The notes beneath the pieces were generated by a model that had not been told where the DNA came from, searched no databases, and worked only from the letters and a program-made list of their open reading frames with translations. From Eledone cirrhosa (Eukaryota), in the NCBI GenBank assembly GCA_964016885.1, contig OZ024747.1:21638001-21702000 (forward strand): a stretch of 64,000 nucleotides of DNA, in the 5' to 3' direction. A program made the position numbers and the translations under genes. Below are positions 1,531 to 4,165 of the stretch, piece by piece (within the stretch, counting starts at the first letter, position 1; each line of letters opens with the position of its first letter).

Positions 1531-4165
1531 TATATATATATATATATATATATATATATTATATATATATATATATTATATATATATGTATGTATATGTA
1601 TATATATATATGTATGTATATGTATATATATATATATATGTATGTATATGTATGTATATGTATATATATATATATATATATATATATATATACATGTATA
1701 TATATATACATGTATATATATATATACATGTATATATATATATATACATGTATATATATATATACATGTATATATATACACGTATATATATATATATATA
1801 TATATATATACATGTATATATATATATATAGATGTATATATATACATGTATGTATATATATATACATGTATATATATATATATATACATGTATATATATA
1901 TATATACATGTGTATATATATATATACATGTATATATATATATATATATACATGTATATATATATATATATATATATGATATATATATATATACATGTAT
2001 ATATATATATACATGTATATATATATATACATGTGTATATATATATATACATGTATATATATATATATATGATATATATATATATACATGTATATATATA
2101 TATACATATATATATATATACATGTATATATATATATATATATACATGTATATATACATATATATATATATACATGTATATATATATATATATATATATA
2201 TACATGTATATATATATATATATATATATACATGTATATATATATATACATGTATATATATATACATGTATATATATATATATACATGTATATATATATA
2301 TACATATACATGTGTATATATATATATATATATACATGTATATATATATATATATACATGTATATATATATATATACATGTATATATATATATATATATA
2401 CATGTATATATATATATATACATGTATATATATGTATATATACATGTGTATATATATATATATATACATGTATATATATATATATACATGTATATATAGA
2501 TATATACATGTATATATATACATGTATATATATATATATACATGTATATATATATATATATACATGTGTATATATATATATATATATACATGTATATATA
2601 TATATATATATATACATGTATATATATATATATATATATATATATACATGTATATATATATATATACATGTATATATATATATATATATATATATATATA
2701 ACGAAGGAAATGTGGTAAGGAACCAGGTGGACCATAACGCACCAAAGTACTCAATACTTGAGGTAGTAGAGTGGGTAATAGGAACCAGTAAGACCCGACA
2801 GCTGAGCTCAAGCCGTTTCGACGGCTAATTCTGGACGAGTCCAGAATTAGCCGTCGAAACGGCTTGAGCTCAGCTGTCGGGGTCTTACTGGTTCCTATAT
2901 ATATATATATATATATATACATGTATATATATATATATATATATATATATATATATATATATATATATATACATGTATATATATATATATATATATATAT
3001 ATATATATACATGTATATATATATATATATATACATGTATATATATATATATATATACATGTATATATATATATATATATATATATACAAGTATATATAT
3101 ATATATACATGTATATATATATATATATACATACATGTATATATATATACATATATATATATATGTATATATATATATGTATATATATATATATATATGT
3201 ATATATATATATGTGTGTGTATATATATATATATATATGTGTGTATATATATATATATGTGTATATATATGTATATATATATACATAATATGTATATATG
3301 TATATATATATATGTATATATATATACATAATATGTATATATGTATATATATATATGTATATATATATACATAATATGTATATATATATCTATATATATA
3401 TACATAATATGTATATATGTATATATATATCTATATATATATACATAATATGTATATATGTATATATATATATCTATATATATATACATAATATGTATAT
3501 ATGTATATATATATGTATATATATACATAATATGTATATATATATATACATAATATGTATATATATATATATACATATGTATATATGTATATATATATGT
3601 ATATATATATATACATAATATGTATATATATATATATATATGTGTGTGTATATATGTATATACATATATACATATTATGTATATATACATACATATATAT
3701 ATACATATATACATATTATGTATATATACATACATATATATATACATATATATATACATATTATGTATATATATATATATACATATATATATACATATAT
3801 ACATATTATGTTTATATATATACACATATATATACATATATACATATTATGTATATATATACATAATATGTATATATGTATATATATACATAATATGTAT
3901 ATATGTATATATATGTGTATATATATAAACATAATATGTATATATGTATATATATATGTATATATATATATATACATAATATGTATATATATATGTATAT
4001 ATATATGTATGTATATATACATAATATGTATATATGTATATATATATGTATGTATATATACATAATATGTATATATGTATATATATATGTATATATATAT
4101 GTATATATATATGTATATATATATACATAATATGTATATATGTATATATATATGTATATATATAT
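1531..4165. repeat. Interrupted (TA)n array (CATG, then CATAATATG units)
   Basis: Direct; split by unique island 2701-2895. Confidence 0.97.
2778..2898. repeat. Near-perfect 121-bp palindrome made of a hammerhead 3' half
   Basis: Arms differ by one C; centre GGAC-GA-GTCC. Confidence 0.92.

Follow-up and report, generated by a model that had tools for sequence, protein, structure and literature searches.

How did half of a hammerhead ribozyme come to be written twice, head-to-head, in the 64,000-nt stretch of the Eledone cirrhosa genome analyzed here (the window)? The two arms of the palindrome (2778 to 2836 and 2839 to 2898) differ by one mismatch only, CCC facing GGGG in the stem I strand, and the innermost 43 bp pair without mismatch on either side of a two-nucleotide centre that reads GA on the plus strand and TC on the minus strand. 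No other perfect palindrome of the family was found in the window at arms longer than 12 nt and a GC content above 0.3, the other entry in that search being an unrelated 12-nt pair at 42979. On the plus strand, sequence and parent alignment placed the hammerhead 3' half at 2856 to 2883, comprising GAAA (2856 to 2859), stem III with the palindromic loop TGAGCTCA (2865 to 2872), GUC (2876 to 2878), and the stem I 3' strand GGGGT (2879 to 2883); the predicted hammerhead cut lies between 2878 and 2879, precisely where a minority of other family copies end. Palindrome comparison placed the mirror half on the minus strand (2792 to 2819), its stem I one G shorter. A complete hammerhead core, with a 5' CUGANGA-type strand, was absent from both strands of 2701 to 2898. 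The sequence-only reading of this locus had correctly described the hairpin, GAAA, stem III with its self-complementary loop, GUC, the stem I 3' strand, and the missing CUGANGA, although the GGGGTC that it gave for each strand is present on the plus strand only, the minus strand reading GGGTC. What it took for stem II of the parent, the long central hairpin, is instead the stem II 3' strand opposite an inverted copy of itself, and the span it assigned, 2778 to 2898, fits the palindrome but not the inserted unit, which starts at 2701 with a one-sided tail of 80 nt.

The whole insertion (2701 to 2898), whose ends are common to most family copies, consists of two ends of a Hydra-clade Penelope-like element (PLE), both truncated, placed head-to-head in (TA)n. 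A (TA)n-rich target array flanks it on the left (1530 to 2700) and another on the right (2896 to 4165), the first TAT of the latter being shared with the element, and the 77 nonrepetitive bases at 2701 to 2777 adjoin the palindrome within this TA-rich array. We numbered the element from a putative start, taking the A of TTTAGTCC/TTCAGTCC as +1. The long arm (2701 to 2836, minus strand) then runs from +138 to +2, includes the tail, and was aligned by blastn to L160:3386-3250, L160 being a full-length copy, while the short arm (2838 to 2895, plus strand) runs from +1, the putative transcription start, to +58, the end of hammerhead stem I, and is identical to L160:3249-3309. Against the pLTR of L160, the arms were identical at 136/137 and 61/61 positions. 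The tail (2701 to 2780, minus strand) lies between two fixed ends, presumably the starts of reverse transcription, at both of which TAT is next in the RNA; in tandem copies it runs on into the 5' leader and the ORF. Between the arms stands a G at 2837 (plus strand) without a template in either arm, likely the copy of a 5' cap, as suggested by an excess of G at centres of the same type. Short-read contigs of unknown kind cover the centre (pieces 2808 to 2869, X1 to X3, 0 to 3 gaps) and stem from family members, hence they are not proof for this locus; they were used only for a family depth step and for fold-back joints outside the assembly, and because they span the centre, misassembly does not account for the fold-back class. 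Contig joints at 2838 were partly forced by the reference and were excluded as evidence.

Other repeats were also present in the window. Three minimal hammerheads with canonical CUGANGA cores, at 29817 (plus), 52070 (minus), and 51147 (plus), belong to other repeat families near TA runs and are probably other PLE ends. A tRNA-like Rfam match at 12490 to 12553 (32.4 bits) heads a repeat that is likely a tRNA-derived SINE. Further fold-back or near-palindromic islands were found at 31394 to 31575, 14167 to 14231, and 42979 to 43009, and the minus strand of 42900 to 43100 resembles RT-coding sequence.

By its motifs, and by eye against published supplement alignments, the parent is a Hydra-clade PLE. 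Besides a truncated copy in inverted orientation and a partial tandem, L160 contains a full ORF of 718 aa (L160:3483-5636) in which RT (YRDD at 347) is followed by a C-terminal GIY-YIG endonuclease (YIG at 605) in a single frame. This ORF also encodes RWR at 36, a conservative change from RWK, DKT at 116, a CxCx5C linker at 571, and CxxC and CxH near the endonuclease end at 669 and 697; GxKF/Y was not present. Its Atlas feature neighbours (0.96 to 0.99) included clusters some of whose members carry GIY-YIG or RVT_1, and Pfam, NCBIfam, and PDB sequence searches with the ORF returned no useful match. The family shows the Hydra-clade traits of (TA)n insertion, tandem and inverted pLTRs, and a one-sided tail, and inverted 5'-truncated copies with a one-sided tail are a published PLE layout (PMC8557442; PMC3846280). 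As described for Hydra-1_Obim and other C-terminal EN+ PLEs of the clade (Craig et al. 2021, PMC8557442), RWx, DKT, CxCx5C, CxxC/CxH, (TA)n targeting, the inverted 5'-truncated copy with its one-sided tail, and a pLTR hammerhead are shared. Hydra-1_Obim is a separate family, whose listed hammerhead reads ctgaagag and has other stems. The present family differs from the published clade in having RWR for RWK, a unit of ~3.5 kb, a tail of 80 nt rather than 30 to 40, and a U3-A8 core with a long stem II.

The family is abundant in this 3.0-Gb genome. A 29-mer from the tail had 25,280 exact matches (control 0), which sets the number of family tail copies at no fewer than that, and the short end followed by TATA had 20,150. 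Long copies extend through a 3' UTR of ~1.4 kb into the end of a GIY-YIG-type ORF, and ~470 copies carry the leader 3' of the tail, some in head-to-tail arrays with a period of ~3.5 kb. Four full units were found in such arrays (C1:91476599-91487248, C1:437200362-437210977). The palindrome is an ordinary by-product of a known retroelement class and is itself most likely inert; its value lies in the family-wide population of copies.

Is the parent pLTR a hammerhead? The sequence-only reading had proposed that 3' halves were duplicated head-to-head from a genomic parent, and parent copies were indeed found, with the predicted ACCCC strand just before the core and CGGCTA after it; the core itself reads UUGANAA, not CUGANGA. 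The 5' half pattern CCCYTGANRA..CGGCTAWT occurred at 7,128 places, with G8 in none of the first 100. When CUGANGA was forced, 11 matches remained, and a canonical CUGANGA parent was rejected: of the 10 fetched, 9 were family copies with scattered point changes and the tenth was unrelated. Given a parent core of UUGANAA, and CUGANGA with stem I in only 11 of 7,128 copies, no CUGANGA was lost, contrary to what had first been supposed, and nothing catalytic disappeared by mutation. Across 36 aligned parents, the pLTR has the type I hammerhead core (Y3 U4 G5 A6 N7 R8 A9, G10.1-C11.1, GAAA, NUH), with U4 in 35, G5 in 35, A6, A8, and A9 in 36 each, GAAA in 35 to 36, U16.1 in 36, C17 in 35, all four bases at N7, and U in 27, C in 7, and G in 2 at position 3, a conservation that is inflated because most copies were found with a core pattern. 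Helix cells were paired at 91.7%, compared with 28 to 56% when slid, and compensatory pairs within the family numbered zero. Rfam gave no hammerhead match in the 64-kb window nor in full-length L160 (to E 10). What supports the fold is therefore the conserved core and the topology, not covariation. The minimum-energy structures computed for four parents were weak (z -0.1 to -2.8), and cofolding the two ribozyme halves yielded the hammerhead helices, as expected by construction. U3-A8 is a published variant of the PLE hammerhead core (PMC4209133). Published PLE hammerheads, the U3-A8 variant of Schistosoma Cercyon among them (Cervera and De la Pena 2014, PMC4209133), share this core, the type I topology, the palindromic loop 3, the bulged helix II, and motif pairs on opposite strands 100 to 700 bp apart; relative to those described there, the present family has a helix III of 5 to 6 bp, a 35-nt apical part of helix II that would hold the start, and one subfamily with C3-A8.

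We consider it probable that the insertion is a short head-to-head copy of this PLE, in which two cDNAs ran off the capped start of one RNA, inside stem II, and were then joined. The arm ends were examined in the first 90 of 100 listed tail matches on contig C1 and, more broadly, in first matches along contigs C1 to C4, which are not random draws. Among the 90 tail-anchored copies, 67 were short pairs of one long and one short end and 1 paired two long ends (four pairs were reclassed by eye). Long arms ended within -6 to +8 in 52 of 83 cases, within +12 to +54 in 23, past -50 in 8, and between -7 and -49 in none, and 47 of 64 partner arms likewise started within -6 to +8; several arms match to -2 to -6, and these small negative values may be chance extension. 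This wall at +1 is not absolute, since in 100 rows there were 3 head-to-head pairs with arms extending to about -15 to -27. The outer ends, by comparison, are fixed at +58 and +138, one long and one short per insertion. In a short-end-anchored sample (n = 30), 21 copies face a long end and none a short end, 9 being unclassed by script. The two-short-end class, rare in that sample, is represented in the window by a second family copy at 19394 to 19482, head-to-head and tail-less, with a different centre. Of 30 copies with the leader, 16 have a tandem unit upstream, 4 begin within -9 to +4, and 10 are cut further downstream or are unplaced; nontandem full-length copies starting near +1 are L216 (with an extra G), L208, L217, and L235.

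Other junctions were observed near the same position. L039 jumps from +1 into the 3' UTR. Poly(A) or poly(T) runs at the head-to-head junction of L029, L093, and L244 suggest a jump from the RNA 5' end to the poly(A) tail. In L021:1600-2100 (L034:253-786) and L057, the arm abuts, at or close to +1, the endonuclease end of another PLE family, one that blastn did not align to L160, which suggests that cDNAs of two PLE families were joined.

Arm haplotypes agreed in 27 of 33 pairs (33 of 45 were scorable; shuffled mean 9.4, maximum 18 in 10,000), an agreement that later gene conversion could also produce. Shared subfamily letters would also suit fold-back, a scheme in which a single cDNA halts within the structured stem II, doubles back, and serves as its own template, and self-priming on an antisense template has been proposed for Penelope palindromes (PMC3846280). 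Many centres are near-perfect palindromes or contain short recopied stretches, as fold-back would leave, and at centres of the window's type perfect TA centres, GGACTAGTCC, are the commonest (39 loci among the first 100 of 287 rows). However, in 10 of 21 centres with a G, and in the window, GA lies on the short arm, so that the long strand has no TC to copy from. The window's own centre (GGAC, then GAGTCC on the short arm) is hard to obtain by fold-back, because it needs a cDNA made separately from RNA. The second arm, moreover, stops at a fixed +58, and the strongest helices of the parent are at +16 to +58, not at +1. We therefore regard fold-back as unlikely. Strand switching at the stem II hairpin, the route first suggested for this locus, fares similarly, since copying stops, with an extra G, at a fixed A in the stem II tip, where pairing is weak, and the end of an RNA template fits better.

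What lies at +1 was inferred from the bases around it. In parents, base -1 is T in 31 and C in 5 (36/36), whereas in the first 100 of 6,571 matches in which it is not T, counted by eye, it was G in 48, C in 44 (partly templated), and A in 8. Eleven G cases were inspected; 5 were not derivable from either arm and 6 were ambiguous. Among centres of the window's type (first 100 of 287 rows), there were 21 G, 1 A, and 0 C (P 1e-5), and neither template gives G or A. All 21 G loci are long+short, with G on the short arm in 10 and on the long arm in 11, and they span at least four subfamily haplotypes; the window's centre thus arose repeatedly. Its exact form was present at about 60 loci (21% of 287 rows). 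A TATA-like box, which varies (TATTTAAA, TATTTATT, TATTCATA), lies at -29 to -31, and TT/TCAGT at +1 is what we take to be an initiator-like motif. Internal promoters are contained in Penelope pLTRs (PMC2377424), and an untemplated G has been read as a cap trace in L1 and SVA (PMC4859970). The +1 A inside stem II likely marks a capped RNA start, putatively of Pol II, and a start at this position would explain why short copies hold only the hammerhead 3' half.

The extra C on the cDNA may also reflect terminal addition, which can happen wherever a template ends, and the cap is deduced from genomic letters. The +1 wall could instead be an uncapped processing site, by a nuclease cut in the stem II tip, or a hard stop for RT, with the C added by the enzyme, a reading to which start heterogeneity and the resemblance of the YAG there to a splice acceptor lend something. 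We judge it very unlikely. The base added at +42 is mostly A or T (34/39), while at +1 it is C on the cDNA, so C is not the enzyme's addition to ends in general, and the TATA-like box stands at the usual distance from +1. A splice acceptor at TTTAG was rejected, as the arms keep the AG; nor is there a fixed upstream exon at the junctions.

A second, smaller pile-up was found at the predicted ribozyme cut. Both arms end within a few bases of GUC at 326 loci (control 17). For the 49 of these loci that were listed, the 98 arm ends fell at +42 (40), at +41 (29), at +43 to +45 (19), and at +40 or less (10); 22 of the 29 ends at +41 are blunt CCCC/GGGG joins that can be read equally as +42, the base with which the predicted 3' cleavage product begins. 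At 16 of the 49, the two arms both stop at +42 and are separated by extra letters, and the extra first letter at +42 ends was A in 22, T in 12, and C in 5. All but two of the 49 were long+short (47), and one was a chance match. Single arms that end at the cut and then run into TA (33 matches, no matched control) were left out of the evidence. The pile-up likely represents copies of the in vivo cleavage product. A natural mutant bears on this reading: the CCTAC subfamily, in which 9 of 14 parent copies have a C3-A8 mismatch, should lose the cut footprint. The expected loss was not seen, with 129 loci compared with 326, about 0.7 of the expected share, and none of 15 CCTAC cut-site loci carried the tail letter marking the two U3 parents with readable tails. 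Either the variant still cuts, or cutting occurs in trans, or +42 has another cause. Copies with the C3-A8 core mismatch (L044, L095, L146, L162, L166) belong to a subfamily that has amplified widely and retains the pile-up.

Under the reading that we favour, two cDNAs from one capped RNA, the element's enzyme would cut both strands of a TA repeat, and both target ends would prime, likely on one RNA, at two nearby sites in its front end (+58 and +138). Both cDNAs would run to the physical 5' end of the RNA, that is, the cap or, less often, the ribozyme cut, after which end-joining would presumably unite the two. Since the capped RNA would include no more than the ribozyme 3' half, it could not cut itself there, and the whole ribozyme would be confined to read-through RNA. 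The minority of insertions ending exactly at the cut site would likely be copies of cut RNA, and copies passing +1 may have had a read-through transcript as template or have arisen when copying jumped to the 3' pLTR. In agreement with such a route, the protein of a PLE was shown in vitro to cut the two target strands and to extend both from two internal starts (PMC11167929). That element, Poseidon PAc of Anolis (Frangieh et al. 2024, PMC11167929), shares with the present family two internal starts that bound the tail, cutting and extension of both target strands, and an AT-rich target. Its starts need no homology, whereas here both ends have TAT next; no RNA reads were found at the PAc cut site, whereas here genomic copies end at the cut, and the text examined describes no start inside the ribozyme, which here appears likely.

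Adineta Penelope elements (Arkhipova et al. 2013, PMC3846280) share head-to-head junction palindromes, a tail on one side, solo pLTRs, and TATA and Inr-like motifs in the pLTR. Their palindromes were read as antisense self-priming (PMC3846280), whereas here the G and the fixed ends point to two copies of sense RNA. In L1 twin priming, two primers on one RNA likewise lead to an inversion, and an untemplated G denotes a capped 5' end (Hancks and Kazazian, PMC4859970). The present family differs from L1 in that its two arms overlap fully. L1 inversions are not known to contain one stretch copied twice.

The fixed outer ends and very high copy number might also indicate a nonautonomous palindrome that propagates itself in the manner of a MITE or a retrozyme, or else a duplex RNA with a function (siRNA or ADAR substrate, or decoy). 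If transcribed, the palindrome would form a stable 60-bp hairpin, and the predicted fold of 2701 to 2900 reached -131.9 kcal/mol (z -18), a stability equalled by none of 200 shuffles. Yet the ends are asymmetric (long+short), all of the sequence comes from the PLE pLTR, and the upstream part of the promoter is missing. The centres differ between copies, and that of the window recurs at its ~60 loci in both orientations and several subfamilies; target-site duplications are unreadable in (TA)n. A non-LTR retrozyme is built of tandem monomers, each with a whole hammerhead (bioRxiv 10.64898/2026.07.22.740005), whereas the insertion is a single inverted unit with half ribozymes. Propagation in its own right, or function as a duplex, is thus highly improbable.

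The PLE route to inverted and tandem insertions and hammerhead cutting in vivo are both stated to be open (PMC8557442, PMC11167929). In a literature search over listings and openly accessible article text, we found no report of a PLE start inside its own hammerhead or of genomic copies ending at the cut, and the available text of PMC6155905 and of the 2026 retrozyme preprint holds nothing on either.

The hammerhead may even be split by its own promoter, a tentative and rather doubtful idea in which the capped RNA opens with the substrate half and the catalytic half lies in the 3' pLTR of the same RNA, pairing across 3.5 kb. Hammerheads assembled from two strands are a known format. If so, this pairing would keep the RNA ends close to each other, allowing a strand transfer like that of retroviruses to build tandem copies, and the leader would be cut at +42. 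The tens of thousands of palindromes would then be failed strong-stop intermediates, in which the cap, the cut, and the two priming sites are recorded to the exact base. For the family as a whole, genomic fossils give exact coordinates for a putative start within the ribozyme at +1, for presumed priming at +58 and +138, and for the predicted cut at +41/+42.
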